Origin: Spirochaetota bacterium
Lineage (GTDB): Bacteria > Spirochaetota > UBA4802 > UBA5550
Assembly (NCBI GenBank): GCA_016933025.1
Contig: JAFGBT010000004.1
Span: forward strand, 1,598-65,597
Direction of reading: 5' to 3'
DNA: 64,000 nt
Made by a program: the position numbers and the translations under genes. The notes beneath the pieces are model-generated. The model was not told the origin of the DNA and did no database searches. It saw only the letters and a list, made by a program, of their open reading frames with translations. Shown piece by piece: positions 4,416 to 64,000 of the stretch (position 1 is the stretch's first letter; every line of letters begins with the position of its first letter).

Positions 4416-4561
4416 ACCGATAACAATCGGTCGCACTGCAGGGTCAGAGTAACCGGTCGACCGATAGTTATCGCCTGCGGCCGATAGTAATCGGTTCCCG
4501 AGGCGATTGTTATCGCCTGTTTGAGGGGCCGGAGCAAGCAGAGTACCGATAGTTATCGGTA
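4416..4561. repeat. Cluster of five 12-bp imperfect palindromes CGAT(A/T)..(T/A)ATCG (REP-like)
   Basis: Cores at 4418 (CGATAACAATCG), 4462 (CGATAGTTATCG), 4482 (CGATAGTAATCG), 4504 (CGATTGTTATCG), 4547 (CGATAGTTATCG); the same motif recurs near 21155, 21290, 28780, 28821, 43465, 46280 and 47081. Confidence 0.8.
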
Positions 4562-8282: not shown

Positions 8283-8499
8283 CGTACACCTCGACCACCA
8301 CCTCGGGGCAGACCAGCGCGCAGATGAGGCACCCGGAGCACTGCGCCATATCGTCGGGCTCCGCGTAATGGTATCCGGCCCTGTTCAGGTGCTCCGATTC
8401 TTTCAGGACCTTCCGCGGGCAGTAGGCGATGCAGAGCCCGCACCCCTTGCACATCTCGGTGTCTATTTTTACAATATGTTTCACGGCGGCTTTCGTCAT
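8275..8499 (-). CDS. 2-oxoacid:ferredoxin oxidoreductase delta subunit (2[4Fe-4S] ferredoxin)
   Basis: CKGCGLCIAYCP and CSGCLICALVCP; overlaps the alpha subunit start. Confidence 0.93.
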   Translation of the reverse strand: MTKAAVKHIVKIDTEMCKGCGLCIAYCPRKVLKESEHLNRAGYHYAEPDDMAQCSGCLICALVCPEVVVEVYDE

Positions 8500-8724
8500 T
8501 TCCGGGTCCGTATGGCTTATGATAATCTGTCAAAGAATATAGATGGCCGGTTTTTTTTCAATAAGAAATTTTTTCACAATGCCGCGGCACATCGGGAATT
8601 GGCATTATTTTCTTATGTCCGATAGAAAGGGCCGGAGATACAGCCGCTGAATTCCTCTAAAAAATATTTGCCTGCCTCCCGGTTTTCCTGTAATATAATA
8701 AGGATTGTCTGGAGGTCCCACAAC

Positions 8725-9891
8725 ATGCAACATTCACGCCTGTTCGGCATTGTTATAATAGCAACACTGTCAGTATCACTGTCATGCAGCGACGATACCG
8801 GCGGTGACAATGCCGCCGCCCTATTATTTCTCCTCGGGTCACGAAACTACTACCTCGGCCTGACTCCATTCCCCTTCGATATTTCGAGCGTGGACAAGGT
8901 TGAATACGTGTACGATAAAATACGTGCCGACGCCGACATGATCGTGCACCATTTCGACAACGGCATACCCTGGGACGACGCGCTGGCGGACACCTATCCA
9001 TACACGGCAAAGGTCATGGACGACTGGGCGTTTCGTAAAAGCCATATCCCCGCCGGTCACCGGCTCTACGTGGCCGTCACCCCGATAAACAGCATGCGCG
9101 ACGGCCTGGCTCCAGACTGGAATTCGACCGGCGACAACCAGCCCCTCTCGCCGCCGTGGGACGGATACGACTTCAACCATAACGACGTGAAGACGGCATA
9201 TCTCAATTACTGCAGGAGGGTTATTGCCTACTTTAGTCCCGACTATATAGCAGTGGGCGTCGAGGTGAACCTGGTCAGGGAAAAAACCCTCCGGTGGGCC
9301 TCGTACCTGGAACTGCACCAGGGCGTCTACGCGACTCTCAAGGCCGAAAATCCCTCACTCCCGATATTCGTGACCCTTACCGGGATTGACCTCGTGGACG
9401 ACTACTCCGATTCCAATCACGCGGAGCAGATGGCCGCCCTGGCGGATATCACCGATTACACCGATTACTACGCCATTTCACTGCACCCGTTTTTCGCCGA
9501 GATTCCTGACGCGATACTCCCGGATGACATGTTCGACCGGATCTTTTCATCGGGACTCAACACGGCCGGCAAGCCGGCCTGTATAACGGAGACCAGCTTC
9601 CCGGCCGAAGAGCTCACAATGACCGACTACGACCCCGACATCACCCTCGCCGGCACCGAAGCGAAACAGCGTGCCTACTTCTCCCTGCTCTTGCGCGAAG
9701 CGGAAAAGCACAACCTGCTCTTCGTGGTAAACTTTCTCGTGCGGGACTATGACGTGCTGTGGGAAACAACTCTGGGCGCACCCGAAGACATCCTCAAGGC
9801 ATGGCGCGACACCGGCTTCTACGATGAGGATGGCGACCCCCGCCCCGCCCTGGCCGTGTGGAAATCGCGGCTCCGCCTTCCGGTGAAATGA
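8725..9891 (+). CDS. Lipoprotein with glycoside-hydrolase-like TIM barrel (clan GH-A-like)
   Basis: Start MQHSRL; lipobox SLSC; AVGVEVN (acid/base-like Glu) and CITETSFP (nucleophile-like Glu). Confidence 0.55.
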   Translation: MQHSRLFGIVIIATLSVSLSCSDDTGGDNAAALLFLLGSRNYYLGLTPFPFDISSVDKVEYVYDKIRADADMIVHHFDNGIPWDDALADTYPYTAKVMDDWAFRKSHIPAGHRLYVAVTPINSMRDGLAPDWNSTGDNQPLSPPWDGYDFNHNDVKTAYLNYCRRVIAYFSPDYIAVGVEVNLVREKTLRWASYLELHQGVYATLKAENPSLPIFVTLTGIDLVDDYSDSNHAEQMAALADITDYTDYYAISLHPFFAEIPDAILPDDMFDRIFSSGLNTAGKPACITETSFPAEELTMTDYDPDITLAGTEAKQRAYFSLLLREAEKHNLLFVVNFLVRDYDVLWETTLGAPEDILKAWRDTGFYDEDGDPRPALAVWKSRLRLPVK

Positions 9892-9913
9892 CTTGACATT
9901 AAACAGGTCCCGG

Positions 9914-9932
9914 ATACATCTAATTCATGTAT
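9914..9932. promoter_or_regulatory. Candidate TetR autoregulatory operator
   Basis: ATACAT-N7-ATGTAT inverted repeat between TTGACA (9893-9898) and the tetR start. Confidence 0.35.
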
Positions 9933-9942
9933 TGAACTGCGC

Positions 9943-10584
9943 ATGAAACAACCGATGAAAAAGAAATACCACAAGGAAACCTTCGAAAAAATTTCGGAAG
10001 AAAAGAGAAACCGTCTGATCGAGACCTGCATCAAGCTCGCCGGCCGAAACGGGCTCGCGAACACCAAAATCGAGGACATCGCCAAGGAGATGGGGATTTC
10101 ATACGGCTCCATCTACTCCTATTTCGCCTCAAAGGAGGACCTCGGCCACACCATCATCACCAGGGGCATCGAGCTCGAGATGAGGACCTTCGAGCAGCCG
10201 GCAAACTTCACGGACACCTTTTCCCATATCCAGGCCGTGTTCGAGCGGTCGTTGAAGATCGGGCTGGAACAGCCCGAGCTGATCTGTCTCTGGCATGAAG
10301 TGAGCCTGCCGTACAATCATCAGTACTCGGGCCACACCACCGAGCTCTTCCGCCTGGGCGTCGTCGAATGGAAGGAGATACTGAAAAAGGGCGTGGCGCG
10401 GGGCGATATACGCAAGGACATAGACATCGACACGATGGCGTTCATCCTGAACGCCATCGCCTCACAGTTACTGAGGTACAACATGTCGGAATATCAGAAG
10501 ATGAAGCGAACGATCCACTTTTCCCGCAACCAGGACAACCCGATACCGGACATCATGGCGGAACTGAAGAAAATGCTCGCCTGA
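9943..10584 (+). CDS. TetR/AcrR family transcriptional regulator
   Basis: HTH GLANTKIEDIAKEMGISYGSIYSYFASKEDL; C-terminal GVARGDIRKDID. Confidence 0.92.
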   Translation: MKQPMKKKYHKETFEKISEEKRNRLIETCIKLAGRNGLANTKIEDIAKEMGISYGSIYSYFASKEDLGHTIITRGIELEMRTFEQPANFTDTFSHIQAVFERSLKIGLEQPELICLWHEVSLPYNHQYSGHTTELFRLGVVEWKEILKKGVARGDIRKDIDIDTMAFILNAIASQLLRYNMSEYQKMKRTIHFSRNQDNPIPDIMAELKKMLA

Positions 10585-19958: not shown

Positions 19959-21143
19959 ATGAACGGACAAACCGAAGCCGGCGTCATCACCGACCCGTTA
20001 AGCGGCATAACAATACTTGACCTTTCAACGCAGGTCCCGGGCCCCTACTGCTCGATGCTCCTCGGAGATCTTGGCGCGGACGTAATAAAAATAGAACAGC
20101 CCGGCATCGGCGATTCCGCCCGCCTGCTCCCGTTTCTGTTCAACGGCATCAACAGAAACAAGAAAAGCATGGTGCTTGACCTCAAGTCCCCGGAGGGGAA
20201 AAAAATTTTCAGAGAGCTTGCCGCGCGCGCTGACGTGGTGCTTGAGGGATTCCGCCCGGGAGTGACGGAGAACCTCGGCATCGACTACGAGGCCCTTCAA
20301 AACCTCAATCCCGGAATCATATACTGCTCCATCACCGGATACGGGCAGAACGGCCCGTACCGGGAAAACTCCGGCCATGACGTGAACTATCTCGGTATTT
20401 CCGGGCTTCTGAGCCTGGCCGGCGAATCCGCGAACTCCTGCAGAATTCCGGAACTTCCCGTCGCGGACCTCGCGGGAAGCATGTTCGCGGCGCTATCCAT
20501 CCTCTCCGCCCTGATCCAGCGGGAAAAGACGGCCGCGGGCCAGTATATTGATGTTTCCATGACGGCAGCTGTTTTTTCCTGGCTGAGCGCCTCGCTGGGA
20601 GCCGGGCTTAATAACGCAAACGCGGGACCGCCCGTCTTTCTTCCTCACTACGGCGTCTTCAAAACAAAAGACGGCAGGTCCCTGACCCTCGGCATCGTGC
20701 ATGAGGAGCACTTCTGGAAAAACCTCTGCACGGTGATCAACCTCGGAGACATGTCGCAATTGAAACTGCTCGACAGGATCGTCAAGCGCGAAGAACTGCA
20801 TGCAGCGCTACAATCCGCATTCCTTTTAAAAAACAGGGACGAATGGATCGCCCTTTTAAGCGAGGCCGATGTGCCGTGCGGTCCCGTTTTATCAGTCAAC
20901 GAAAGCTGGGACGACCCGCAGATCAGGCACAGGGACCTGGTCTTCGACATGAACCATGCGGTTCATGGAAAAATCAGGCAGCGGGGCTTCCCTGCGCTCT
21001 TCTCCGGCATTCGCCTGAGAAGAGATCTTTCCCCTCCCTCCCTGGGAGAGCACAGCGATGCAATACTGGCGGACCTCGGCTATTCACGGGAACAGATACA
21101 GGACTTGCTGAATAAGGGGGTTATCTCCTCGCGAATAAAATGA
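19959..21143 (+). CDS. CaiB/BaiF family (class III) CoA-transferase
   Basis: LDLSTQVPGPYC, LGADVIKIE, NRNKKS, EGFRPGV, GHDVNY. Confidence 0.93.
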   Translation: MNGQTEAGVITDPLSGITILDLSTQVPGPYCSMLLGDLGADVIKIEQPGIGDSARLLPFLFNGINRNKKSMVLDLKSPEGKKIFRELAARADVVLEGFRPGVTENLGIDYEALQNLNPGIIYCSITGYGQNGPYRENSGHDVNYLGISGLLSLAGESANSCRIPELPVADLAGSMFAALSILSALIQREKTAAGQYIDVSMTAAVFSWLSASLGAGLNNANAGPPVFLPHYGVFKTKDGRSLTLGIVHEEHFWKNLCTVINLGDMSQLKLLDRIVKREELHAALQSAFLLKNRDEWIALLSEADVPCGPVLSVNESWDDPQIRHRDLVFDMNHAVHGKIRQRGFPALFSGIRLRRDLSPPSLGEHSDAILADLGYSREQIQDLLNKGVISSRIK

Positions 21144-21146
21144 ACA

Positions 21147-21301
21147 CCTGTTTACCGATAACTATCGGCAAACAGGCCGCCCTGCCCCCTTTAAACCGAC
21201 AACTATCCCTTATCGGTTACTCTGACCCCGCTGGTTTACTCTTACACCACGCAATCATGAAAAAATCTTGCATTATAACCGGTTCTTACCGATTGTTATC
21301 C
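21147..21301. repeat. Second cluster of the GATAGTTATC repeat family, including a long hairpin just after the CoA-transferase stop
   Basis: CCTGTTT-A-CCGATA-AC-TATCGG-C-AAACAGG (21147-21176); reverse-strand GGGTCAGAGTAACCG also present at 4441-4455; CGATTGTTATC at 21290. Confidence 0.7.
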
Positions 21302-50555: not shown

Positions 50556-51254
50556 TTACCTGATGGTCCCGCCGCAGAACCGGATTACCCGCCATCGCTT
50601 TTCCCGGGCTCTCTGTTCCAGCAAAGGGTCGGGATTCACCGCAAAGGGAAAGCCAGCCAGATCGAGGAATGGCGCGTCATAGATGCTGTCGCCGAAGAAT
50701 GCGCAGCGCGACAGCGGCACGCCGGCCCGCTCGGCATAGGCGCTCCCGAGCGCGACCTTACCCTCTCCGAAGCAGTAAGGCCGGATGGCCCTTGTGAAAC
50801 GGCCGTCCTCGATCGCAAAGCGGTTCGCAATGATACCGTCCATCTGGAGGAAGCCGGCGAACGGCGCGGCGATGGCTTCATCCTGAGCGGTCAGGATCAG
50901 CGTACGACACCCCCGCTCCCGGAATCCCCCGACCAGGGCAACGGCCTCCCGGTATATGTGCGCGCGTCCTTTGTCTTCAAAAAATTCATTTGCCCGGCCG
51001 CGGAATTCGTCTGCCGAGAGGGTCCCGATCCTGAACCGCTGGTATTTCATATACTCGTCGATGTCCAGCCGACCGTTCCTGAAGTCGCGGTACATCTTGA
51101 AAAGCCACGCGCGCTCAGCCCATCCCTTCAGTTCATGGCTGGTTCGCCATGACGCCCAGAGCGAATCGGTATCCTCGTCGGTGAGGGTTTCGTCAAGGTC
51201 GAAAAAGGCAATGTCTGCGTCCGGGAGATTGTGCATCAGGTCCATAATACTCAT
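50556..51254 (-). CDS. HAD-IB family hydrolase (second paralogue)
   Basis: FFDLDET, ILTA, GEGK, FGDSIYDAP; start uncertain (51254, 51245 or 51236). Confidence 0.88.
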   Translation of the reverse strand: MSIMDLMHNLPDADIAFFDLDETLTDEDTDSLWASWRTSHELKGWAERAWLFKMYRDFRNGRLDIDEYMKYQRFRIGTLSADEFRGRANEFFEDKGRAHIYREAVALVGGFRERGCRTLILTAQDEAIAAPFAGFLQMDGIIANRFAIEDGRFTRAIRPYCFGEGKVALGSAYAERAGVPLSRCAFFGDSIYDAPFLDLAGFPFAVNPDPLLEQRAREKRWRVIRFCGGTIR

Positions 51255-51349
51255 ACCAGCATCCGGCGTTAATCCAGAGATGAGGGAAAGACACATCTGG
51301 TATAGAATATGTTATTATGCAAGAAATTTCTGTCAGTGGGATGAAAATA

Positions 51350-52906
51350 TCAGTCATCGATGATGAGCGCCATGCCATGGAGCTCGCGAACCACCTGATC
51401 GAGGTCGCGCGATTTTTCAGACATTCTCCGCGCCCCCTCGGAATAGACCTGGGTTATCTCGTTCAGGTTGGTGATAGATTTTACGATTTCATTCATGGAA
51501 AGCTTCTGCTCGTCCATGGACTTCTTGATCTCGTCCGACATCTTCATGACCGATCCAGCTTCGTCATTGACTTTCCGGTTAATCTCCTTCTGGCTCTCCA
51601 TCTGCCGGGATATCTCACCGATCTCGACGCTGATGGTGCTGACTCCCTGGATAATCTGCATGATAGTGCTTACGGTCTCCTGGATGTTCGCCATACCCCG
51701 TGCAAGCTCCTCCACGTTCGCCTTGATAAGCCCGTCGATCTCCTTGATGCTCGCGGCCGTCTGGTCGGCCAGCTTTGATATCTCATCGGCAACCACGGCG
51801 AATCCGCGGCCGGCCTCGCCCGCACGCGCCGCCTCAATGGCCGCGTTCAGCGAGAGGAGATTCGTCTTGTCGGAAATATCCCCGATCATACCCACGATAC
51901 CGGTCATCATCCCCGAGCTCTCGTTGACCTTGGTAAGGCTCTCACTCATGGTGCCCAGAATATCGCTGCCCTGCGTCGCCACGCCGGACACCTCGTCGGT
52001 GAGCGAGAAGGTCCGTTCAACTCTCCCGGCGATCTGCTCAATCGTGCCTGACAGGGTCTCGATATTTTTCAGAAGCGACCTCATGCTGGCATACTGGTTC
52101 GCGACATTGTCCGTCACCATGTCCACCCCGCCGGAAATCTCCTCGGACGTAGCGGTTATCTCCTCTATGGCCGACGCCTGCGACTGCGATTCCATTGAAT
52201 ACGAATCGGACTCCCGCGACAACTCCGTGGAATGAGACGTCAGCTTTTCAGATACGCCCTTGATAGAGTCATAGAGGCCCTTGATCACGACATACTGGTC
52301 AGCGTTCTTCTTCGATTCATCCTCGGAACGGTCAAGGGCGTTCTTGTTGATTTTAAAGATCTGGAAGCAGATGAGGCCGACAAATACTATGGTAATTCCA
52401 TTATCCACAACGTAATCGATTATAGTATTTTCATCCATTGAAAACTGCCCGTAGGCAACGGCGACAAAAGCAGCAAACAGTGCCATGTTTACTGCCGTGT
52501 AGACCAGAATCAGGTATTTATTCTCCGACACTATCAGCGGCGTCAGCACCATGAGTCCCGGTATGTACACGATCGTATTCAGGACGATTATCGGACTTGG
52601 ATTCTGATCAGTAAACAGCGTCGCCCATCCCGCCAGCAGGGTAATGATCAGGATCATATGAGCGGCAATACTGAATTTCCCTGACTTAAGAAAGAAAACC
52701 GCGACGAGTATTATTATCAGGGCCATAATCAGTGGAAAGATAAGCTCAAATTCGACCTGCCCTGTGACAATATTCATGGCAATAATGACCGGCAGGCAGC
52801 AGGTTAGTATTATTGATATAACAAGTATGATCCGGGATTTCTGCTGCAGCACATAGTTTGCGTCTTTATATGCGCCGAGAAAATAATCGTTAATACGTGA
52901 CAACAT
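51350..52906 (-). CDS. Methyl-accepting chemotaxis protein with multi-TM sensor
   Basis: About six N-terminal TM segments; signalling hairpin [29 protein letters not shown]. Confidence 0.95.
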
Positions 52907-53449: not shown

Positions 53450-54694
53450 TTACTTCCGGCCGGCCTGCACCATCGGCGATTCCCGGAGCCGCGAGGTCAG
53501 GAACACATTGAATGCAGCCAGTACGATAAAAACGACCATAAATTCGACCATTCCTGCGACGTTCATACCGATCGCGAACAGAATGCCCGAGACCTGGCCG
53601 GCAAGCAGAATGACCCCCTGCGACAGCGATTCCGGCGCCGGGAAGCTCACCTCCGCCGCGTACTGGAATCCGATCGGCCCGGCGCCGCCCAGCAGGAAGA
53701 AGCCCATGATCGCTGCCGAGACGAGCATTATCCCGTAGCTATCCGCAAACGCAAGCCCGATGAGCCCCGGGATCATGAGCGCCATGCCCAGGCCAAGGAA
53801 GAATTTCCGCTTCCTGAACCGGTCCGATAGGGCCGGCTGGATGAGCGCACCGAGAATACCGGCTATGAACATCATGCCCATAATCATGCCCGTCTGCTCC
53901 GTGGCCAGCTTTTTTATCTCGCATATACGGTCGAAGACAATCGTCAGCGCGTTGAACATACCGAGCCCTATAAAGAAAAGCACGAGGGCGATCCGCATGT
54001 CCCGGTGTCGTAAGATGTGACTGAAGCCGTCGCGGGAGAGCAGGCGCTCCTCGGCGCCGTGCTGCGACGGCGGGGTCGCGGGCTTCTCGCGCATCAGGAT
54101 GAGGAAGACCGCGGCGACCACGGCGGAGATCACCCCCCAGGTCATCAGCATACCGGAGAGATCGTAGGACTCCCCGCTCTTCACCACCAGATAGGGCGTC
54201 ACTATGCTCACCACAATGAATCCCACGTACTGGGCGAGCGTCCCGATCCCGACAGCCGTTGCCCGCTCGTTGAGCGGGAACCAGTTTGCCGCGACCCGCG
54301 TCACAGCGTTCAATATGAATGGCTGGGCAACCCCCAGTCCCACCTGGCAGACCACCATCATAGGATAGCTCGCGGCGAACAGCCCTTTTGCAAGGCCGAA
54401 GACACCGGTCAACGCCGCCCCAATCCCGATACCAATCCGAATCCCATACCGGTCGATTATATACGAGGCCGGGATGCACACGATGATGAACAGGATCAGG
54501 AAGATCATGGCAAGCAGATCAATATACAGCCCTTCATTAATGCCAAAGCCGTACGCGGCCTGCGCCTCGCGCGCAATGGGAGCGAAGGTCAGCCACTGGA
54601 TCTCTATTATCACGGTAATCAAGAAGTAAGCCAGTAGAACTATCCATCGGTAACCATAAACCTGATAGGTATTCTGTTCAAGCTTCACATTCAT
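53450..54694 (-). CDS. MFS transporter
   Basis: 12 predicted TM; YIIDRYGIR and LSDRFRKRK loops; WFPLNERATA; GGAGG RBS. Confidence 0.92.
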   Translation of the reverse strand: MNVKLEQNTYQVYGYRWIVLLAYFLITVIIEIQWLTFAPIAREAQAAYGFGINEGLYIDLLAMIFLILFIIVCIPASYIIDRYGIRIGIGIGAALTGVFGLAKGLFAASYPMMVVCQVGLGVAQPFILNAVTRVAANWFPLNERATAVGIGTLAQYVGFIVVSIVTPYLVVKSGESYDLSGMLMTWGVISAVVAAVFLILMREKPATPPSQHGAEERLLSRDGFSHILRHRDMRIALVLFFIGLGMFNALTIVFDRICEIKKLATEQTGMIMGMMFIAGILGALIQPALSDRFRKRKFFLGLGMALMIPGLIGLAFADSYGIMLVSAAIMGFFLLGGAGPIGFQYAAEVSFPAPESLSQGVILLAGQVSGILFAIGMNVAGMVEFMVVFIVLAAFNVFLTSRLRESPMVQAGRK

Positions 54695-54858: not shown

Positions 54859-56334
54859 TCAGTCTTTCTTTATTTCAATATGCTTGAATACCCGCTCGAA
54901 CCGGGCCAGGGCATCGTCTATCACATCGTCCGTATCCGCCATGCTGCAGTACAGCCGGCTCCCGGCCAGGGTTATGATGCCCTCCGCCATCAGGGCCGCG
55001 CCCATCTCTTCCATGACCTTCTTGCGCGCGCCCACTTCCTTGAAAATATTCGGGTTCTTGATGTCCATGAGCATGGCCGCACCGGTCTCCATGTGGCAGA
55101 TCGAGCCGTGGTTGAATGCCACAAACGGTAGCTTAAGCCGGTCAAACATGTCAGCCAGTCCTTTGGTGAGCCGGTCGCCGGCCGCGCCGGCCTTGAGGTG
55201 AGCTCCCGTCTCCTCGATGGCCTTGATGCAAAAGTAACCCGCAGCGCATGAGAGCGGGTTGGCCGAGAGGGTGCCTCCAACCATGGCACGCTTCCCGCCC
55301 GGGCCGCCGCCGAGCCCGGCGGCGTAACAGAGCATCACGTCCTTGCGGCCGCCGACGCCTCCGGCGCCGGGGTAACCGCCGGCCACGCACTTGCCGAATA
55401 CCGTGAGGTCAGGCTTCACGTTGAAGTAGCCCTGGGCCCCGCCGAGCCCCACGCGGAACCCGGTAACCACCTCGTCGAAAACCAGGAGCGTCCCGAACCG
55501 ATCACAGAGCTCGCGCACATTCTTATTGTAATCGGGGAGCACCGGGCGGGTGCCGCTCTCCGGTCCGAGCGGCTCCAGGAATACCGCCGCCGTCCCGCCG
55601 TCCTGCTCGTTCTCCTCCATCCGCTTTTGTAATGCTTCAAGGTCGTTCGGGAAGACCTCCTGAGTGAACTGGTAGCATCCCGCCGGTATCCCGTGGGCGT
55701 CAAGCGGACCCACGCCAGGGACCCGCATCCCGAACACGAACTGATCGCTCCAGCCATGGTAGGCCCCGCCGATCTTTATCACGTATTTCTTGCCGGTGAA
55801 GGTGCGCGCGGCACGAACCGCGGCCATGCACGCCTCGGTGCCGCTCATCAGCATGCGGAACATCTCCACGGAGGGCATGTGGCTGTGTATCAGTTCGGCC
55901 AACTTGAGCTCGTACTCGTGGAAGAGCCCGGTAACCGGACCGCTCTCTTTGATGACCTCGATTACCTTCTCCTGCACCGGCTTGTAATTGCTCCCGAGGA
56001 GCGTCGGCCCCCCTGCCTGGAGGAAATCGATGTACCGGTTGCCGTCCACGTCCCAGAGGTACGCTCCCTCAGCCTTGGTTATGGCGAGCGGGAACGGATA
56101 GTTGAATGCGAGGTTGTGCTGGACGCCGCCCGGGATCAGCTCCTTTGCGCGATTCGTCATCTCTTTGGATTTGGCGCATTTCGTATCAAAGTGATTCATG
56201 TACTCCTGCATCTTATCCCGCTTGATCTGATGAATCGGGAGCTCGTTGGCCAACCGGTACAGCCGTTTCAGCAAATCCTCGGTATCAGGCCAGTCCGATA
56301 TGGAATATGATTTCTTCGTGTCTGCTTTGTTCAT
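54859..56334 (-). CDS. Class III PLP aminotransferase, GSA-aminomutase-like subfamily
   Basis: LIPGGV, GAYLWDVDGNRYIDF, SGTEA, YHG, FDEVVTGFR, FGKC (PLP lysine); start placed at MNKAD (GGAG RBS). Confidence 0.9.
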   Translation of the reverse strand: MNKADTKKSYSISDWPDTEDLLKRLYRLANELPIHQIKRDKMQEYMNHFDTKCAKSKEMTNRAKELIPGGVQHNLAFNYPFPLAITKAEGAYLWDVDGNRYIDFLQAGGPTLLGSNYKPVQEKVIEVIKESGPVTGLFHEYELKLAELIHSHMPSVEMFRMLMSGTEACMAAVRAARTFTGKKYVIKIGGAYHGWSDQFVFGMRVPGVGPLDAHGIPAGCYQFTQEVFPNDLEALQKRMEENEQDGGTAAVFLEPLGPESGTRPVLPDYNKNVRELCDRFGTLLVFDEVVTGFRVGLGGAQGYFNVKPDLTVFGKCVAGGYPGAGGVGGRKDVMLCYAAGLGGGPGGKRAMVGGTLSANPLSCAAGYFCIKAIEETGAHLKAGAAGDRLTKGLADMFDRLKLPFVAFNHGSICHMETGAAMLMDIKNPNIFKEVGARKKVMEEMGAALMAEGIITLAGSRLYCSMADTDDVIDDALARFERVFKHIEIKKD

Positions 56335-56393
56335 GACAGTCTCCATTGTTTTATAAATATTATTTTGATCTATCCTCACAGATTGCTATTACT

Positions 56394-56496: not shown

Positions 56497-57189
56497 TCAT
56501 ACCTTAACCTTGAGCTCCTCCCTTCTCTTAATCTCCGCGTCCTGCTTCATGACAACGATTTTACCCATGAGCTCCTGCATGTTCTGCGGCAGGAGGTTTA
56601 TCTCCTTTCCGGTCGAGAGCGCGTAATAGTAGACCCGCGCGCACTTTTCCAGCAGCTCGGTATTTCTCTTCGCCTTAGAGATATCAGAGCCGAGCGACAG
56701 CGCCCCGTGATTCTGCAAAATATAGCAGTTACCCCGGTTCCCGAGCTTGGTGACGACATTATCCATGAGCTGCGGACTCCCCGACAGACCGTAGGGCACA
56801 ACCTCCACGACCGGTCCAATAGTGCTGGCGACCTCGTCGAACAGGCACGGGATCGGCTCGTTGATCAGCGCGAAGACGCTGGCGAAGATCTGGTGCGTGT
56901 GCACCACCGCGCCGACGTCTTTGCGGTTCCGGTAGACCGACACGTGCATGCCCGTCTCCACCGAAGGCTTGATGCCGTTGTCTTCGATCGGCTTCAGGTC
57001 AAAATCGACAACGCATATCTCATCGACGGTGAGTGTCCGGTACTCCCTCTGGGACGGCGTGACCGCTATCACGTCCTCCCCCTCCACCAGCATTGAAACG
57101 TTGCCACCGAGCCCCTGGATATATCCCTCATGCACAAGGTCCATGGTGCAGTCAAACACCTGTTTCTTATACGAGTCGTATTTTCCCAT
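56497..57189 (-). CDS. Class II (Zn) aldolase/adducin family, FucA/Ald2-like
   Basis: GGNVS, VTPS, PSVE (catalytic Glu), HTH and NHG (Zn ligands). Confidence 0.92.
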   Translation of the reverse strand: MGKYDSYKKQVFDCTMDLVHEGYIQGLGGNVSMLVEGEDVIAVTPSQREYRTLTVDEICVVDFDLKPIEDNGIKPSVETGMHVSVYRNRKDVGAVVHTHQIFASVFALINEPIPCLFDEVASTIGPVVEVVPYGLSGSPQLMDNVVTKLGNRGNCYILQNHGALSLGSDISKAKRNTELLEKCARVYYYALSTGKEINLLPQNMQELMGKIVVMKQDAEIKRREELKVKV

Positions 57190-57199
57190 AGCATCCTCC

Positions 57200-58801
57200 C
57201 TAACTGTTCATCACGGTGAACAGCTTTTTATTTCTATCATATAGTTTCTTGAAAATCTCGAAATGCCTGTCGTACATGCCCCGGTTTCGTTTTTGAGGTT
57301 CGTAGGTCTTCTTAACCGGGATAAGGCTCTTCGCCTCCGCGAACGATTTGAAAAGTCCAAGCCCCACGGCGCATACCACGGTGGCGCCGATAGTTCCGAC
57401 GTTCTGCGGATCAGCGACGGTCTCTATGACCCGGCCGGTGATATCGGCCATGATCTGGCAGCCGATCTCGGATTTCGCCCCGCCACCCACGAAGCGAAGC
57501 CGCTCGCGCCTCGGTATCTTCAGCTCCATCGCCTCAAGCATCCACCGCTTGTGATATGCCATTCCCTCCATGACGGCGCGGATCATCTGTCGCTTGCCGG
57601 TGTCCAACCCCAGATTGAAGAACATGCCGCGCGCGTGCGGGTCTTCCCGCGGGGACCGGTTCCCGTGGAGCCAGGGGGTGAAAATCACTCCGCCGGAGCC
57701 CGCCGCCGTTTTGCTTATGACGGCGTTCAGGAAATCGAATAGGCTGTTATATTCATCGGTCTTCTCAACGACATGCTTAGCCTTCAGGTACATGCCTATC
57801 TCGTCCAGGGCAAGGTGGTCGCGCACCCACTTGAGACAGGCGCCGGAGGTCTCCTGCTCGGCCGAGTAGTTGTAGAGGCCCGGTATCGCTCCGAGGATTG
57901 AGGCAATAAAATTGCCAATATCCACCATGCGCTTGTCAACGTTCGAAAGCACCCAGCCGGACGTGCCCACATACACGTGCGTGTCATACAGGTCGAGGCA
58001 GCCTGCGCCGATGGCCGTGAGCGACGTGTCGCCGCCGCCGCCGAATACCGGTATCCCCTCGACGAGCCCCATCTGCCGGGCCGGACCGGGGAGAAGGCGC
58101 CCCACTACGTCGGTGGATTTGACCACCGGCGGCAGAAGTTCCATGTTCACGTCAAATGTATTGCAGAGTCCCCGGTGCCATCCGAGTTTTCCCGGGCGTG
58201 TATCGTACAGGAAGGTGAGGTGCGCCGAATCCTGCGTCATGCCGTACTCGCCGGTGCAGCGAAGGATCAGGTAGTCCTTTACATCGAGCCACTTGTACGC
58301 CCGCTTGAAAAGTCCGGGCTCGTTGTCCTTCACCCAGTGATACTTCCACAAGGGGTCCTTGGGGGTCGCGGCAAGCCCGCCGGTGATCATAAGCGACCTC
58401 AGCGTGGTGACTGCATTCCATTTGCCATTTATTTTCACCAGGCCCCGATTCAGGTACCGGTCAATCTGCGCCGTGGAGCGGCCGTCCATGTAGTTCATCG
58501 GGTTCCTGACTGCCTTTCCCGATTCATTGACGAACACCGAGCCCTGCAGCTGGGCGCAAAACGTCATGGCCGCTATATCGGCCGGCCTGATCTTCGAACG
58601 GGCCATGATTGTTTTTGTCGCCGAGCATACGGCCGCCCACCATTCATCGGCCTTCTGTTCGACACCGCCGTCAGGCGTCGTGTACAGGGGATATTCAACC
58701 AGATACGAATCGACCAGCTCTATCCGCCTGCCGATCCGATAGATACAGGACTTGTTCCCCGTCGTTCCGACATCATGAGTTACTACATATGCTTGTGCCA
58801 T
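57200..58801 (-). CDS. FGGY-family carbohydrate kinase
   Basis: HDVGTTGNK, GGGDT, YVGTSGW, PWLHGNRSP, GGGAKS..CQIMADITG; 10 bp from the aldolase; start placed at MAQAYV. Confidence 0.92.
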   Translation of the reverse strand: MAQAYVVTHDVGTTGNKSCIYRIGRRIELVDSYLVEYPLYTTPDGGVEQKADEWWAAVCSATKTIMARSKIRPADIAAMTFCAQLQGSVFVNESGKAVRNPMNYMDGRSTAQIDRYLNRGLVKINGKWNAVTTLRSLMITGGLAATPKDPLWKYHWVKDNEPGLFKRAYKWLDVKDYLILRCTGEYGMTQDSAHLTFLYDTRPGKLGWHRGLCNTFDVNMELLPPVVKSTDVVGRLLPGPARQMGLVEGIPVFGGGGDTSLTAIGAGCLDLYDTHVYVGTSGWVLSNVDKRMVDIGNFIASILGAIPGLYNYSAEQETSGACLKWVRDHLALDEIGMYLKAKHVVEKTDEYNSLFDFLNAVISKTAAGSGGVIFTPWLHGNRSPREDPHARGMFFNLGLDTGKRQMIRAVMEGMAYHKRWMLEAMELKIPRRERLRFVGGGAKSEIGCQIMADITGRVIETVADPQNVGTIGATVVCAVGLGLFKSFAEAKSLIPVKKTYEPQKRNRGMYDRHFEIFKKLYDRNKKLFTVMNS

Positions 58802-58932
58802 GGAATACCTGCTGTGGTTTGTGAGATGTGGCAATTGTTACCCGCGCAGCCGCGGGGAACAAGGCGTTATACCTGGATGGTTTCCGGACATCTCATCCGC
58901 ACGATTAATAGATAATTACGAAAACCCGCCGG

Positions 58933-58964
58933 GTCATATCAAAAACTGATAAATCAGAAATTGA
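58933..58964 (-). promoter_or_regulatory. Conserved 32-bp motif upstream of the FGGY kinase operon (candidate AraC-family operator)
   Basis: GTCATATCAAAAACTGATAAATCAGAAATTGA; 27/32 identical to 63201-63232, same orientation. Confidence 0.7.
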
Positions 58965-59051
58965 GAAAAAGATAATATCATCCCGGGAATCAGAATACAG
59001 AGCCCATTGACTCGCGGTGAAAATGTTCAAAAACCGTAATACATACAGGTT

Positions 59052-60719
59052 TTAATGCTTTTTCTCTCGAAATTGTGTCGGCGTAACCTTCATGACCTTC
59101 ATGAATGCCCTGTTGAATGTGGGGAGGCTTTCAAAACCGACGGAAAATGCGATATCGATAATGTTAACGCCCGTCTCCGCAATTTTACGCGCGGCCTCCC
59201 TGACCCTGAGCTCATTGATGTACTCGCTGATTTTTTTGTTCGTGTAAATCTTGAAAAACCTCCCAAACGAATCAGGATGCATGTTGATCGATGCGGCAAG
59301 CCCTTCCCGGGATATATCCGATGTATAATTCTGCTGTATAAAAGCTATCGCCTTCTTGATTTTATCCTCGATGTTTTGCGTGATGGAATGCTGACGCGCG
59401 ACGGCAGTCTGATCTATCATTCTCTGGTAAAGGTAGGCGTTTTCAATCGCGGACGCGGCCTGCGCAATAAAGGCCGTGATCAGCCGGATGTCGGTCTCCC
59501 TGAACTGGCCCGCCTTACGATTCCGCTGGAGGCAGCAGACTCCAATGGTCTCCTCCCGTAGATTGATGGGCACGAAGAGGGAGTCGAGCGCGCCGATCCC
59601 GGCTTTTCCCGCAGCATCATGGCCTTCAACGGTCCGGTGACGACGCTCCTCCACGGTTCTTGCGGCCGTCTCTGCCACCCAGAACGGAACGTCTTCATTA
59701 TTGGAACGGACCGCCGTTTCAAGGCCGCCGCCGTCGCCGACCATGAAAAGGTAGCCGCCCGACGCTGCTGATATCTCCATCGCCTTTTCCAGCGACCTGT
59801 TCAGGAGCTTATCGATGTTAAGAACGATGCTTATGTCCTGGCTGAGTGAGCTTATCGATGTGCCGGCATCGCGTTTGCGATTTTTTCCCTCGTCCGCTCC
59901 GGCGCCCGCCTCGCCGGAAATTCCTGCATAGAGATCTCGGGTGATCTCGCTGAAAAAAAGCTCCATGGTTCGGTCGTTCACCTTCTCCTCAAGCTGCTGC
60001 GTCAGCTCCTCAACCTCGCGATTCAGCGTGACAAAACGGCTCTGCAGCACATGCGCCATCGAAAGGATAATGAACAGGTACGTGTACTCGAGCAGGTAGA
60101 TGAAGGGATAGACCCCCGCGCCGACGAGTACGTCGTTCAGGGCGGCCGCAAAAAAGAGTATCATCGACACCAGGATCGGCCTTGCGTTGGGCTGCTCCTC
60201 GCTCCGGTAATTCCGGACCAGGACGTAAAAAAGAAAGGCCGCCGCCAGTATCATCGAAGCGTACTGTATTGAATAAATGATTCCGGGGTCCACCTCGTTG
60301 TATACTATGACACCTCCCCACAGGTTGATGGTTTTTACGAACGGCCGAGACAGGGAAAGAGTGAGCACGCCCCGTATGAAAACCCCCAGAAGGAAAAATG
60401 CGGAAAGCCATGCAGTGATAATAATGAAGGGTATCCGCGACCTGAAGCGGGTAAAATGATAGATGAACCAGGATACCGATATGGTAAAGAGGGCAAGAAC
60501 GGCAAACTGAAGCCGCTGCCAGAACATGCCCTTTTCAATCGTCGATGCGTTGTAGAGGCCCGCGCAGAATATGTCGTAGAGGGCGATAGCGAAGCAGGTG
60601 ATGGCGAAGGCCAAATTCTCGACCTCTGACCTCCGGCGAGCGAACATGATCAGATAGTAGAACCCCACATAAAAGGAGACGGCGGCCATAAGTGCCGGCG
60701 GTAATGATACCCAGCTCAT
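59052..60719 (-). CDS. Membrane-integral AraC-family regulator (7TM HisKA_7TM-like + coiled coil + GAF + AraC HTH)
   Basis: About 7 hydrophobic helices; GAF LFVPINLREETIGVCCL...FRETDIRLI.AF..QAA.AIENA; AraC DISREGLAASINMHPDSFGRFFK and IIDIAFSVGFESLPTFNRAF; start placed at MSWVSL. Confidence 0.88.
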   Translation of the reverse strand: MSWVSLPPALMAAVSFYVGFYYLIMFARRRSEVENLAFAITCFAIALYDIFCAGLYNASTIEKGMFWQRLQFAVLALFTISVSWFIYHFTRFRSRIPFIIITAWLSAFFLLGVFIRGVLTLSLSRPFVKTINLWGGVIVYNEVDPGIIYSIQYASMILAAAFLFYVLVRNYRSEEQPNARPILVSMILFFAAALNDVLVGAGVYPFIYLLEYTYLFIILSMAHVLQSRFVTLNREVEELTQQLEEKVNDRTMELFFSEITRDLYAGISGEAGAGADEGKNRKRDAGTSISSLSQDISIVLNIDKLLNRSLEKAMEISAASGGYLFMVGDGGGLETAVRSNNEDVPFWVAETAARTVEERRHRTVEGHDAAGKAGIGALDSLFVPINLREETIGVCCLQRNRKAGQFRETDIRLITAFIAQAASAIENAYLYQRMIDQTAVARQHSITQNIEDKIKKAIAFIQQNYTSDISREGLAASINMHPDSFGRFFKIYTNKKISEYINELRVREAARKIAETGVNIIDIAFSVGFESLPTFNRAFMKVMKVTPTQFREKKH

Positions 60720-60830
60720 CGAAAACCTCTGGCAGAGATTGTTGCCACGCGCAAGCGGGCCGACCGGCATGCGCGATAATCATACATTATACTATCTCGA
60801 TAAAAATTAAAGATAATTTTTTTTGCCTGG

Positions 60831-60859
60831 AAAAAAAAGCCGCGTCGAAAACGCGGCTT
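60831..60859 (-). terminator. Intrinsic terminator after the ceramidase gene
   Basis: Minus strand AAGCCGCG-ttttcga-CGCGGC followed by T8. Confidence 0.75.
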
Positions 60860-60914
60860 CAGGCACAATTTATATGGGGTTTTTAATTACAATTATCTTT
60901 CTTTCATCCAATAC

Positions 60915-63098
60915 CTATTTTACTTTAAACGATTTGGTCACTCCCTCGTAGGGGCTTATTTTACCGGTCCAGCCGGACTTCCAGTTCCCCTTGTGGCGAA
61001 TACGGTACGTGCCGGGCTGAGCATTCAGGGTATTCCAGGTAATGGTTATCTTGGAATACGCGATGCTGTTACGCTCCCATCGGTATGTGGTGTCCGGATC
61101 CCAGTCATAGGTCGCCGGCACATATTTCCCGTCGACCAGCTTCTCAACAACGAGAAAGCTGTCCTGTGTCCTGAGATTGTTATTCGGATGGGCGCCCCAA
61201 AATTGCACGGAAACAAGGCTCCCTTTCGCGTAGCTCGATGACGGCTGCGTAATAACGCTGCCGAAGCTCTTGCCGAGCGGCTTGTCGTCGAACCACACCT
61301 TCGCGGTGAAATCAACAGTCTGGCCGGTGACATCCTCGGGGGTCGGCCCTGCCGGGACCCCGGTTCCGTTAACAATTGCCCTGCAGAGCTTTGTGTATTC
61401 CTGCCGGAACGCCGTCAGCTGATTCGGGCCGAACTGCGTTGCGGCTCCCTCGTACCACTGCTTCGCGTATTCCTCCCTGGTGGCCATGTACGAGGCATAG
61501 GTGTTCGAGAGGGCGGCGACGACCGCGCAATCCACGCCGTCGGCGGCCAGCTCGTTGATGAGCGTCTTCTTGATTCGCCGGCCCGACATTGTGGTGACTT
61601 CGGTGGGGACTGCCGCGATTGCCATATTCCCGATTTTCAGAACCTGGAACGGAATGATCTGCGGCGTCATGGTAGGGCCATTAATGTTAAGATGTGCGAT
61701 ACCGGTCGGAATAAGCACCGGTTTTTCCGCCTGGCACTCCTTGTAGGCCGCGTCGTTGGTCGCGGGCCACGCGAAGGCGAAGACGCCGCCGAGGAACGTG
61801 CTCAGAAACGCGCTGCCGGCGTTATCGCTCCAGTCAAGGCTGTCGACCGTCGTCCCGTTCGGGAAGAGCGGCGACGGGCTCGGGTTGTCATATGGGCTCC
61901 CGGCCGAGAACGAGGCGCCCATGCCGGCCGCACAGGTGGTACACCCGGCTTCCTCGACATAGAGCGTTCTCATGTCGACCCACTCGTGGCGCGAATCCAC
62001 TGAGCCCGAGAGTTCACGCGCGGCGCCCTCATACAGCTCTTTTGCCCTGGTATATTGCTTGAGGACCGCGTTCTCGAGGCTTTTATTGTTCGCGAACGTT
62101 ACATCGGGCGGCGCCTGGCCGAACCCGATGTTCGGCGTGACGTCGCCGGCGCTCGACTGGGCGAACGCAGCCACGAATGTACGGGCCGCAAAATAATTTG
62201 TCCCCTTGTCCTTCTCGAAAAGAAACGACGCCCAGCCTTTGTTGTCGCCGCTGATCAGCCTGTTCTCTGGGCCGATACTGTCAGGATGGACCGCATACCA
62301 GTTAAGCATGCCGATCTCCTCTCCCTCGAGGGTGACGAACTTGAGGAGTGTCATGGTTTTATCCGTATTGCTGTCGTACAGCGCGCGTTCGGCAGCCGGG
62401 TTGTTCTCATAGGCCTCAACGGCGCGGTTGCCGCCACAGCCGTCAATCGTCCCCTCGCTCACGAGGATCTTGCCGGGGGCGACATTATTGTGGGCCCTCA
62501 CGATCGATTGATAGATTCCGTCCACGATGGCGTTGAAATTCTGCTTCACGAAGCCGTTGATGGTAGCATCATACAGAAAGTAGCCGGAATACCCTCCCGG
62601 GCCGTTGTGCGTGTGCGTCGCCGACAGGAGGATATTTTTTTCATTATAGAATCTGGAGAGGTCCGCATTCTGAGCGATTTTTTCCGAGACCTTCACCTTG
62701 ACCATCTGGAACAGCATGCCCAGATCGGCGCTTACGAACACGATCCGCCTGATTCCGTCGCCGACAACGAAGGCCCGCGACCTGAGACGAATATGTATGC
62801 CCGCGGTTTTTTGATCCGACACGGCAAATCCCATCATGCCAAGCTCGCCGGCCGGGCCGGTGATATCGTAGATCCCGGTTCCTATCAGGTAGACGCTCCC
62901 ACCCGTTGAGGTCGGATTCGTGGGGAGTGATATTACGCTGGCTTCATCGTTATAGGGATTGTTATCGCCACTATCCCCTATTCCGAGCAGCGGCAGCATC
63001 CCGTTACCGGAATCCTGATCGCAGCCAGGAACAGTGAAAAGGAAAACACACACTAACAGTAAAAGGATCTTGCTATGGATGATAGAATGATTGCTCAT
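60915..63098 (-). CDS. Neutral/alkaline ceramidase, lipoprotein
   Basis: ATHTHNGPGG, NRAVEAY, WYAVHPDS, DNKG, GDVTPN, PTEVTTMSGRR, YA.Y.ATREEY..Q.YEG..T.FG; C-terminal Ig-like GTYRIRHKG; signal peptide with VPGC lipobox. Confidence 0.92.
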   Translation of the reverse strand: MSNHSIIHSKILLLLVCVFLFTVPGCDQDSGNGMLPLLGIGDSGDNNPYNDEASVISLPTNPTSTGGSVYLIGTGIYDITGPAGELGMMGFAVSDQKTAGIHIRLRSRAFVVGDGIRRIVFVSADLGMLFQMVKVKVSEKIAQNADLSRFYNEKNILLSATHTHNGPGGYSGYFLYDATINGFVKQNFNAIVDGIYQSIVRAHNNVAPGKILVSEGTIDGCGGNRAVEAYENNPAAERALYDSNTDKTMTLLKFVTLEGEEIGMLNWYAVHPDSIGPENRLISGDNKGWASFLFEKDKGTNYFAARTFVAAFAQSSAGDVTPNIGFGQAPPDVTFANNKSLENAVLKQYTRAKELYEGAARELSGSVDSRHEWVDMRTLYVEEAGCTTCAAGMGASFSAGSPYDNPSPSPLFPNGTTVDSLDWSDNAGSAFLSTFLGGVFAFAWPATNDAAYKECQAEKPVLIPTGIAHLNINGPTMTPQIIPFQVLKIGNMAIAAVPTEVTTMSGRRIKKTLINELAADGVDCAVVAALSNTYASYMATREEYAKQWYEGAATQFGPNQLTAFRQEYTKLCRAIVNGTGVPAGPTPEDVTGQTVDFTAKVWFDDKPLGKSFGSVITQPSSSYAKGSLVSVQFWGAHPNNNLRTQDSFLVVEKLVDGKYVPATYDWDPDTTYRWERNSIAYSKITITWNTLNAQPGTYRIRHKGNWKSGWTGKISPYEGVTKSFKVK

Positions 63099-63200
63099 GT
63101 TGCCCTCCAGCTTGAATATTTGAATACTTTAAAATTACTGCGCAATAATAAAAGACCAGATGGACGGTCTGTGTTTAATTAACATATTTTAATAAGATCT

Positions 63201-63256
63201 GTCATATCAAAATCTGTTCAATCAGTATTTGACAAGCCACGAAAACTGATTAATCA
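63201..63256 (-). promoter_or_regulatory. Conserved motif upstream of the ceramidase, plus an extra half-copy
   Basis: GTCATATCAAAATCTGTTCAATCAGTATTTGA (63201-63232); AAAACTGATTAATCA (63242-63256) matches 58942-58956 at 14/15. Confidence 0.7.
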
Positions 63257-63431
63257 CATTTTAGCCGGTGGTGTCAGAGTAACAGATCATATAATATAAA
63301 TGTTGACGTATTGTAATTATAGGAGTATTGAAAAATCAGATGAAATATTTATACAAATAATTTATTTTGTACAAATAAATAACTTGAAGAAAAAAAACAC
63401 CAACCTGTGGCGGGCCAGGATTGCGGACGCA

Positions 63432-64000
63432 ATGAATATGAGCCGCGCCGATCTCTTTATGAAGTTCTGCCGTGAAATGATGGATAACTATCGCCTCAAA
63501 GGGGCGGCACTGGCAGAGAAAAGAGGCAAGTCATACACAGTATGCTCCACAATCAATCTATTTGATTCTAACACCGACCTTGCATTCACTTATTCCAAAC
63601 CGGATTCCATTTCCTTTTCAAAATCAGAATACGATTCCTGCGCGAAAACCTGTCGTTTTATACCGGCTACGGACAGTTCATTAATACTCATCATCTCCAT
63701 TGATAAAAGAAGAAAAATTGACGAACGTGAAATCACCCTTTCAATCGATTTTCTTTCATATATATCTGATTTTCACCGGAGACAGGCCGATTTTCTCGTC
63801 AGGTATAAAAATTATCTCTCCATATTCATGAAGTCGCCGAACCTGACCGCAATCCTCGACCGGTTCGGCAACGTTCTTGAATGGAACGAAATAGCCGGTG
63901 AGATGTATGGATGGGACCTGAAAGACGGTCCCATAAGCTATGCGGATTTCGTTCATGACAGCGACATACCGCGCATCAGGGCCCTCTTCACCGGATTGTA
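63432..64000 (+). CDS. PAS-domain signalling protein, 5' part (runs off the window; absent from the ORF track)
   Basis: Open frame translated by hand from ATG 63432 (or TTG 63384) to the edge with no stop; YLSIFMKSPNLTAILDRFGNVLEWNEIAGEMYGW...FVHDSD PAS signature. Confidence 0.75.
   Translation, partial: MNMSRADLFMKFCREMMDNYRLKGAALAEKRGKSYTVCSTINLFDSNTDLAFTYSKPDSISFSKSEYDSCAKTCRFIPATDSSLILIISIDKRRKIDEREITLSIDFLSYISDFHRRQADFLVRYKNYLSIFMKSPNLTAILDRFGNVLEWNEIAGEMYGWDLKDGPISYADFVHDSDIPRIRALFTGL

Follow-up and report, generated by a model that had tools for sequence, protein, structure and literature searches.

The closest precedent for the locus described here is the SphR regulon of Pseudomonas aeruginosa (targets cerN, sphA and sphBCD), in which a local AraC-family regulator acts through a motif shared by a neutral ceramidase gene and a separate unit related to sphingoid bases. 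Sphingosine-bound SphR binds a motif common to the ceramidase gene cerN and the sph genes, and its proposed site consists of two 15-bp repeats separated by a 7-bp spacer (PMC5150637). Without sphingosine, SphR does not bind DNA (PMC5150637; see also PMC3900636). We analyzed a 64-kb stretch of DNA (the window) on a Spirochaetota contig that originates from a sediment metagenome, in which two very similar 32-bp sequences lie upstream of a ceramidase gene and upstream of an operon encoding an FGGY-family kinase, a class II aldolase, a class III aminotransferase and a major facilitator superfamily (MFS) transporter. A gene for a seven-transmembrane (7TM)-GAF-AraC one-component regulator is located between them. 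Comparison with related loci supports the conclusion that the shared element is a genuine cis-regulatory site tying the ceramidase gene to the kinase-aldolase-aminotransferase-MFS operon. In this group of uncultured spirochaetes, a common switch very probably controls both units.

As in the SphR regulon, one motif is present at a ceramidase gene and at a second unit, both in the window and in four related genomes (L001, L004, L005 and L006). What is new relative to the SphR logic is the membrane 7TM-GAF sensor architecture (compared by description, SphR is soluble, whereas the regulator of this locus combines seven transmembrane helices with a GAF and an AraC domain), the site itself (a 26-bp dyad instead of 15-7-15 repeats, so that the SphR-like architecture and motif are not found here), the co-regulated enzymes (FGGY kinase, class II aldolase and class III aminotransferase, together with the MFS transporter) and the phylum. 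No characterized member of the 7TM-GAF-AraC class, nor an operator for one, was found in the literature searched.

The two 32-mers (58933–58964 and 63201–63232) are identical at 27 positions and differ at 5, a match of which no instance is expected by chance. A degenerate pattern built from both of them matches only these two places in the window and has no match in 100 dinucleotide-preserving shuffles. The genes of the region are all encoded by the minus strand, and both sites have the same orientation relative to their genes, with site A ending 131 nt upstream of the kinase ATG (58801) and site B ending 102 nt upstream of the ceramidase start (63098). An earlier note on this DNA, which had proposed a shared 32-bp operator, was correct in its 27/32 match, the coordinates, the common orientation and the distances of about 130 and 100 bp. 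It had also named the AraC gene as the sole regulator between the sites and described its upstream region as free of the motif; indeed, the 7TM-GAF-AraC gene is the only gene for a DNA-binding protein there, and a matrix scan found no motif in 60720–60914. The proposed operator holds up as a cis-regulatory element but not in its extent, as the 32-mer is a composite of a 26-bp dyad and the −35 region.

Read in the direction of the genes, site A is TCAATTTCTGATTTATCAGTTTTTGATATGAC and site B is TCAAATACTGATTGAACAGATTTTGATATGAC. The aligned promoter copies of the window and its relatives (n = 20) yield the consensus TCAAtTtCTGATcnaTCAGatTTTGATAnGAc, of which positions 1–26 form the dyad TCAA-N3-CTGAT-N2-ATCAG-N3-TTGA. 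Conservation across the 20 copies is two-fold symmetric at dyad positions 1–4/23–26 and 8–12/15–19, with CTGA/TC-G and TCA/TGA invariant. The dyad contains four TCA/TGA triplets spaced 8, 7 and 8 bp, and because TCA and TGA are reverse complements, its letters also allow a reading as two TCA-N5-TGAT units repeated after 15 bp; which of these readings a protein uses, sequence alone cannot tell. The last six bases of the 32-mer are outside the dyad and carry the invariant G-A of the string A-n-G-A-c, found 2 nt from the dyad end. These are the third and fourth bases of a −35-like hexamer and are the same in 20/20 aligned promoters.

A TAT-type hexamer is located exactly 23 nt after TTGATA in 10 of the 11 kinase promoters (TATCTA, TATAGT, TATTTG, TATGTA, TATACT, TATATA, TATCAT, TATACT, TATACT and TATGCT). 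Because this −10 element follows A-n-G-A-c with a 17-bp spacer, we interpret A-n-G-A-c as a weak −35 element; the dyad then extends from about −62 to −37 relative to the inferred transcription start. TTGATA itself was rejected as the −35 element, given that the conserved −10 lies about 22–23 nt after it, whereas A-n-G-A-c fits the 17-bp spacer. In L001 and L005, the gap between the motif and the ATG is only 47 nt and is filled by the −10 element and a ribosome-binding site (Shine-Dalgarno sequence), so the element would be upstream of the transcription start and would be a DNA site rather than an RNA one.

The module is retained in relatives of the window. The regulator has about 40 full-length homologs, all from uncultured Spirochaetota where named, and 11 of their loci were fetched. 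Seven ceramidase promoters (window, L001, L004, L005, L006 and the metagenome contigs L026 and L040) and 12 kinase-operon promoters (window, L001, L002, L004–L011 and L029) carry the module. Both promoters carry the motif in the five genomes in which the two units share it, and one or the other carries it in about ten more, which gives good support to the proposal of the earlier note that the two units form one regulon. The regulators of the motif-bearing loci are 43–75% identical to that of the window, and the intergenic DNA flanking the motif in these loci is not alignable to that of the window. A marine-sediment contig aligns with the window only at 63198–63232 (33/35 positions), with unlike flanks on both sides. 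Judged from these alignments, the element is a strong, classical phylogenetic footprint. The gene order ceramidase, regulator, kinase, aldolase, aminotransferase, MFS transporter is retained in L001, L004, L005 and L006; in L007 and L009–L011, the regulator gene still precedes the kinase operon, and the ceramidase gene is elsewhere or absent. Altogether, adjacency of the regulator gene and the operon is kept in 11 loci.

The motif is specific to these promoters. The sequence searched comprised the window, 14 related loci and public metagenome contigs. Over about 300 kb (the window plus the related loci), every match with two or fewer mismatches is at a ceramidase or kinase-operon promoter, and L012, which encodes a 40%-identical paralogous regulator and has no kinase operon, contains no site. 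On the dyad matrix the true sites score 28–42 bits, with training members high by construction, and there are no off-target matches of at least 28 bits in the 300 kb; the next-best scores in the window are 13.9 bits for a weak third copy (site C) and then 9.1 bits, and shuffled windows reach up to 17 bits. In a k-mer census of the promoters, the words common to all of them derive only from the dyad, no other block is common to all, and a box of the repetitive extragenic palindrome (REP) type is added at the ceramidase promoters. A strict-pattern scan of public metagenome contigs gave at least 120 matches; of the 120 listed, 4 are in relatives of the system, all at ceramidase or kinase promoters. 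The remaining 116 were rejected as regulon members because they belong to unrelated sequences, among them a coding repeat of marine origin, a tandem repeat in L085 and, in L025, L069 and L100, a site that diverges from a PadR gene. The suggestion that further pathway genes could be traced with the motif has so far not been borne out, no further strong site being present in the window, the 12 related loci or the 120 metagenome matches listed. The other possibility raised at that time, a common genomic repeat, likewise finds no counterpart in the 300 kb or among the metagenome matches listed: the 64 kb contain two strong copies and one weak copy, not the many scattered copies of a dispersed repeat.

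Some weaker or better-known sequences were considered in the same context. A candidate extra site in L009 (5303–5328, CCACTTACTGATGAATCAGGAAATGA, 20.5 bits) precedes genes for a 476-residue signal-peptide protein without a family match, possibly an outer-membrane protein, and for a chemoreceptor. Its membership in the regulon is ambiguous; an unrelated Bacillota locus scores 18.9 bits. Another weak site in L009 (18230–18255) is 100 nt upstream of the ceramidase gene of that genome. Fur, LexA and CRP/FNR boxes were considered but do not fit in spacing, which is TGA-N4-TCA here and TGA-N6-TCA for FNR/CRP.

The adjacent 7TM-GAF-AraC protein is the probable, if far from certain, binder of the dyad. 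No other gene for a DNA-binding protein is conserved in the neighborhood, and, as at AraC/XylS-type promoters, a regulator with a double helix-turn-helix (PF12833, 1.2e-19, and PF00165, 8.7e-10; residues 491–569 of a 572-residue open reading frame) is encoded beside its target. The dyad is the only conserved non-promoter block available as an AraC target. A site near −62 to −37 beside a degenerate −35 element is the usual layout for activators of the AraC/XylS type, and the site here is likewise predicted to abut the weak −35 of an activator-dependent promoter. The likeness to the promoters of araBAD and rhaBAD, to Pm of XylS and to those of MelR extends to the regulator gene next to a catabolic operon, to a site that ends at or overlaps a poor −35 and to an upstream limit near −62. 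Every motif-linked regulator has HPDS(F/L)(G/S)R(F/Y)F as its first recognition helix, and so do the products of the small AraC genes of L008 and L010, which encode only the DNA-binding domain; the regulator of L012 has SPHYLGKAF at this position. We favor assignment of the dyad to the AraC protein because of gene adjacency, the activator-type position, the weak −35 and the conserved recognition helix. The small AraC genes (137–153 codons; L008 20199–20660 and L010 11916–12329) are located between the dyad and the kinase gene, and in L008 a second dyad (20702–20727) is present after the small gene.

Action of a membrane-tethered regulator is also plausible here, as the two promoters are only 0.1 and 2.5 kb away from the regulator gene. 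ToxR, TcpP and CadC also have a membrane-tethered DNA-binding domain and targets near the regulator gene, as here. However, these proteins have a winged-helix domain of the OmpR type and a single transmembrane helix, whereas the protein of this locus has seven helices, a GAF domain and a C-terminal AraC domain.

According to the explanation that we favor, the two 32-mers are copies of one conserved promoter module comprising the dyad, a weak −35 and a TAT-type −10. The module would drive the monocistronic ceramidase gene and the FGGY kinase/class II aldolase/class III aminotransferase/MFS operon, which would make the two units a single local regulon of this clade of uncultured Spirochaetota. 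The dyad would be occupied by the 7TM-GAF-AraC protein, whose gene lies between the two promoters, in dimeric form; as a ligand-dependent activator rather than a repressor, it would recruit RNA polymerase to the poor −35 when its GAF domain or its membrane part senses a signal derived from lipid. The module's sequence, its conservation, its constant distance from the −10 and its restriction to these promoters are observed, whereas the transcription start, activation, the binder and the ligand are deduced. Taken as a whole, from the shared module and the single regulon to the AraC activator, we consider this explanation reasonably probable.

Several points weigh against it. The related loci were retrieved via the regulator, so co-occurrence of the motif with the regulator and its co-occurrence with the operon are inseparable in this sample. 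The form of the site is atypical for the AraC family, in which two half-sites of 15–20 bp typically follow one another about every 21 bp, commonly in direct orientation; such half-sites are not seen here, where there is a tight 26-bp palindrome or, alternatively, units with a 15-bp period. Classical AraC/XylS sites, in which half-sites of 17–20 bp are usually repeated directly every 21 bp or so or are inverted about 16 bp apart, also differ from this compact palindrome. Finally, the Desulfobacterota counterparts of the operon, whose neighboring regulator is of the TetR type, have a look-alike core at the equivalent point of the promoter, and this weakens the AraC assignment.

The operons in question were found through kinase homologs with 61–67% identity in metagenome-assembled genomes of Desulfobacterota and Proteobacteria. 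Two of these loci, L133 and L134, contain aminotransferase, kinase and aldolase genes (L133 also an MFS gene) and a TetR gene with a TetR_C_24 domain, without an AraC gene or a ceramidase gene. Their promoters carry the palindrome ACTGACCGGTCAGT, which has the look-alike core CTGACCGGTCAG, twice upstream of the L133 operon and, in L134, once before a kinase-TetR unit and once before an aminotransferase-aldolase unit. The sequence CTGACC(G/A)GTC(A/G)G, followed by a T-tract and TTGACA, is at 8046–8057 and 8091–8102 in L133 and at 9915–9926 and 20215–20226 in L134. The T-tract and TTGACA follow the palindrome at the same distance as in the spirochaete module (from core to −35, CTGATTTATCAGTTTTTGATATGACC in the window and CTGACCGGTCAGTTTTTGCTTGACAG in L133), and the site of the spirochaete locus L007, CTGACCGGTCA, has exactly the CTGACCGGTCAG-type core. 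As L133/L134 and L007 share this core, CTGA-N4-TCAG follows the operon across phyla although the regulator differs. The TetR-type operators thus resemble the spirochaete sites in the core, the T-tract, the distance to a (T)TGAC −35 and the kinases that they precede; in contrast, their palindrome is 14–16 bp long and lacks the TCAA/TTGA arms, the −35 is the consensus TTGACA, the regulator is of the TetR_C_24 type and no ceramidase gene is nearby. A cognate TetR gene in or beside the unit is present only in L133 and L134, and a tblastn search found no orthologue in the window or L001–L012. The named homologs of the L133/L134 TetR protein are all from Desulfobacterota or Proteobacteria, none from Spirochaetota. 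An unlinked TetR orthologue in spirochaetes was also considered, and there is no sign of one in the window, L001–L012 or the named homologs, although absence is not thereby proven. For the resemblance of the cores across phyla, one scenario, which we regard as unlikely, is that the same dyad core was kept at a horizontally shared lipid-amine operon while the regulator was exchanged, a TetR repressor serving in Desulfobacterota and a membrane 7TM-GAF-AraC activator, which drew in the ceramidase, in Spirochaetota.

These operons bear directly on the possibility that the dyad, while a genuine operator common to both units, serves a different dimeric helix-turn-helix protein whose gene is elsewhere in the genome, for example a TetR-like repressor, with the AraC protein acting at other sites or indirectly. 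We consider this possible but doubtful. A tight palindrome is typical of TetR-, LacI- and GntR-type dimers, and this alternative would account for the CTGACCGGTCAG core at the same distance from the −35 in the TetR-linked operons, for the two marked units of L134 and for the identical core in L007. It is opposed by the lack of a TetR orthologue in the window and L001–L012 and by the taxonomic range of the named TetR homologs. In addition, the degenerate −35 of the spirochaete promoters, with the site at −62 to −37, has the layout expected for an activator, whereas the consensus TTGACA of the L133/L134 promoters suggests a repressor, and the spirochaete site has conserved outer TCAA/TTGA arms that the L133/L134 sites lack.

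Explanations that dispense with a dedicated regulator fare worse. The fusion of the block to the −35 and −10 at fixed spacing, with T-rich spacers, would suit an intrinsic promoter element, either an UP-like T-tract with an unusual −35 or a promoter for an alternative sigma factor, but the conserved two-fold symmetry (1–4/23–26 and 8–12/15–19) is not needed by an element that serves polymerase only, and the block is restricted to the ceramidase and kinase promoter classes; we regard this as improbable. The genome is rich in intergenic repeats, including the REP foot GGGGTCAGAGTAA, which adjoins site B, and CCGATA..TATCGG dyads, so the block has to be weighed as well as a REP-like or mobile repeat dispersed between genes, or as a match due to chance. 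This is very improbable given that there are only these copies in the 64 kb and none in the shuffles, that the position before orthologous genes is kept across genomes with divergent flanks, and that the sequence of the block is unlike the known repeat words of the genome. Even less credible is a transcribed RNA element, such as a leader hairpin, an attenuator or the terminator of the upstream gene: the dyad can pair TCAA with TTGA and CTGA with TCAG ahead of a T-run, but the predicted fold of only −5.3 kcal/mol (z = −1.4) is no better than that of shuffled sequences, there is no Rfam match at E ≤ 1, and the 47 nt between motif and ATG in L001 and L005, occupied by the −10 and the Shine-Dalgarno sequence, place the motif upstream of the start. 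The RNA element or terminator was rejected on these three grounds.

The features of the locus are listed in Table 1. The scores of the kinase, aldolase and aminotransferase fall below the cut-offs of the NCBIfam equivalog and subfamily models (262 against 380 for xylulokinase, 118 against 264 for the best fuculose-phosphate aldolase model and 305 against 398 for the glutamate-1-semialdehyde aminomutase subfamily model, respectively). The shared predicted operator is the main evidence linking the kinase operon to ceramide breakdown. Co-transcription of the AraC gene with the ceramidase gene was rejected because of the strong predicted terminator between them, and a similar terminator is present in L001. 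The locus was not found in the metatranscriptomes of the source study.

Table 1 Coordinates of the genes and predicted regulatory features of the locus in the window.
Feature	Position	Strand	Remarks
MFS transporter	53450–54694	−	last gene of the conserved operon; domain search
Class III aminotransferase	54859–56379	−	domain search
Class II aldolase	56497–57189	−	domain search
FGGY-family kinase	57200–58801	−	first operon gene; 533 aa; P0083; domain search
−10-like hexamer TATCTA	58909–58914	−	17 bp after the −35-like hexamer; sequence prediction
−35-like hexamer ATGACC	58932–58937	−	weak; directly after site A; predicted from sequence
Site A, 26-bp dyad TCAATTTCTGATTTATCAGTTTTTGA	58939–58964	−	perfect TCAA-N3-CTGAT-N2-ATCAG-N3-TTGA; upstream of kinase operon; 42.5 bits, training member
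7TM-GAF-AraC one-component regulator	59052–60719	−	candidate binder; 555 aa; database protein P0001; domain search
Intrinsic terminator between ceramidase and regulator genes	60836–60860	−	11-bp stem and T-run; hairpin prediction
Neutral/alkaline ceramidase	60915–63098	−	727 aa; lipoprotein-like N-terminus; PF04734 5.9e-150, PF17048
−10 candidates TATGTT (63181–63186) and TTAATT (63177–63182)	63177–63186	−	AT-rich; ambiguous
−35-like hexamer ATGACA	63200–63205	−	after site B; sequence prediction
Site B, dyad TCAAATACTGATTGAACAGATTTTGA	63207–63232	−	upstream of ceramidase gene; 38.2 bits
Site C	63239–63264	−	weak; core GTGATTAATCAG good, outer arms degenerate; 13.9 bits

Beyond the MFS gene, the window contains genes for a chemoreceptor (MCP; 51350–52906, minus strand) and a HAD-family hydrolase (50556–51296, minus strand), neither of which is preceded by a dyad in the window. 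Homologs of these two genes are found beside the operon in L001, L009 and L010, and the HAD gene is also found in L007 and L133. Divergent from the ceramidase gene, the stretch 63300–63998 (plus strand) encodes a protein that is not DNA-binding and is a 38%-identical homolog of the PAS + HATPase_c_2 proteins encoded at the same position in L004, L006, L026 and L040. In L007, the region just upstream of the regulator gene (7376–9947) contains no ceramidase gene and encodes an Exo_endo_phos protein, an AP_endonuc_2/xylose-isomerase-like protein and an NAD-dependent epimerase. The Exo_endo_phos fold family includes sphingomyelinases.

The earlier note had also pointed to an additional copy at the ceramidase promoter. 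A further copy of the 15-mer AAAACTGATWAATCA is indeed present at 63242–63256 (AAAACTGATTAATCA), 32 bp from the equivalent core of site B, but it is weak, its score on the family matrix falling within the range of the shuffle maxima, and it is specific to this lineage. Site C occupies a 28-nt stretch between a REP-foot box and site B that has no counterpart in the relatives, and it was discarded as a conserved auxiliary site after it was not found in them. The box, TTACTCTGAC(A/C)CC, precedes the ceramidase dyad by 11–12 nt in six relatives and by 40 nt in the window, where site C fills the extra stretch, and by this comparison site C is a lineage-specific addition outside the conserved module; it may be an auxiliary site. 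The box is the reverse of the REP foot GGGGTCAGAGTAA and is found in the window at 63273–63282 (minus strand), 4443–4452 (minus strand) and 21217–21226 (plus strand), the two further copies being intergenic and beside CCGATA..TATCGG dyads. In the relatives it is at L001 7246, 7319 and 7450, L005 7237, 7274 and 7411, L004 7484, L006 7428, L026 4647 and L040 2183. Such positional conservation is odd for a mobile repeat.

Two other words recur next to the module. Of 12 kinase leaders, 7 contain AATCAGC(R) past the −10 (L002, L004, L006, L007 and others; about 58895–58908 in the window); as this word includes the dyad half ATCAG, it could serve as an auxiliary half-site. The ceramidase promoters, and only these, have a conserved block (A/G)ACCGTC-N4-6-GGT(C/T) just after the predicted −10, in many cases with a T-run behind it (63153–63170 on the minus strand in the window, L004 7573 and L006 7518; similar in L001, L005, L026 and L040). 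The block is weak as an RNA hairpin (−6.4 kcal/mol, z = −1) and could, with its dyad ACC..GGT, be bound by a second protein or form a structure at the 5′ end.

Taken together, these observations provide comparative genomic evidence that, in anaerobic sediment spirochaetes, a secreted or lipoprotein ceramidase is co-regulated with an uncharacterized operon. This co-regulation is the chief reason for supposing that the operon acts on a sphingoid base, the amine that ceramide hydrolysis yields. To our knowledge, no such bacterial route for sphingoid bases has been described. The look-alike core beside a TetR gene in another phylum offers an unusual case for studying the exchange of regulators and operators; if the regulator was indeed exchanged over a retained core, two unrelated DNA-binding folds would read one inherited operator, and through that operator a first regulon would be defined both for the 7TM-GAF-AraC class and for an undescribed route of sphingoid-base degradation. 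For the membrane-embedded 7TM-GAF-AraC one-component regulators, the 26-bp dyad represents a precise, testable DNA target.

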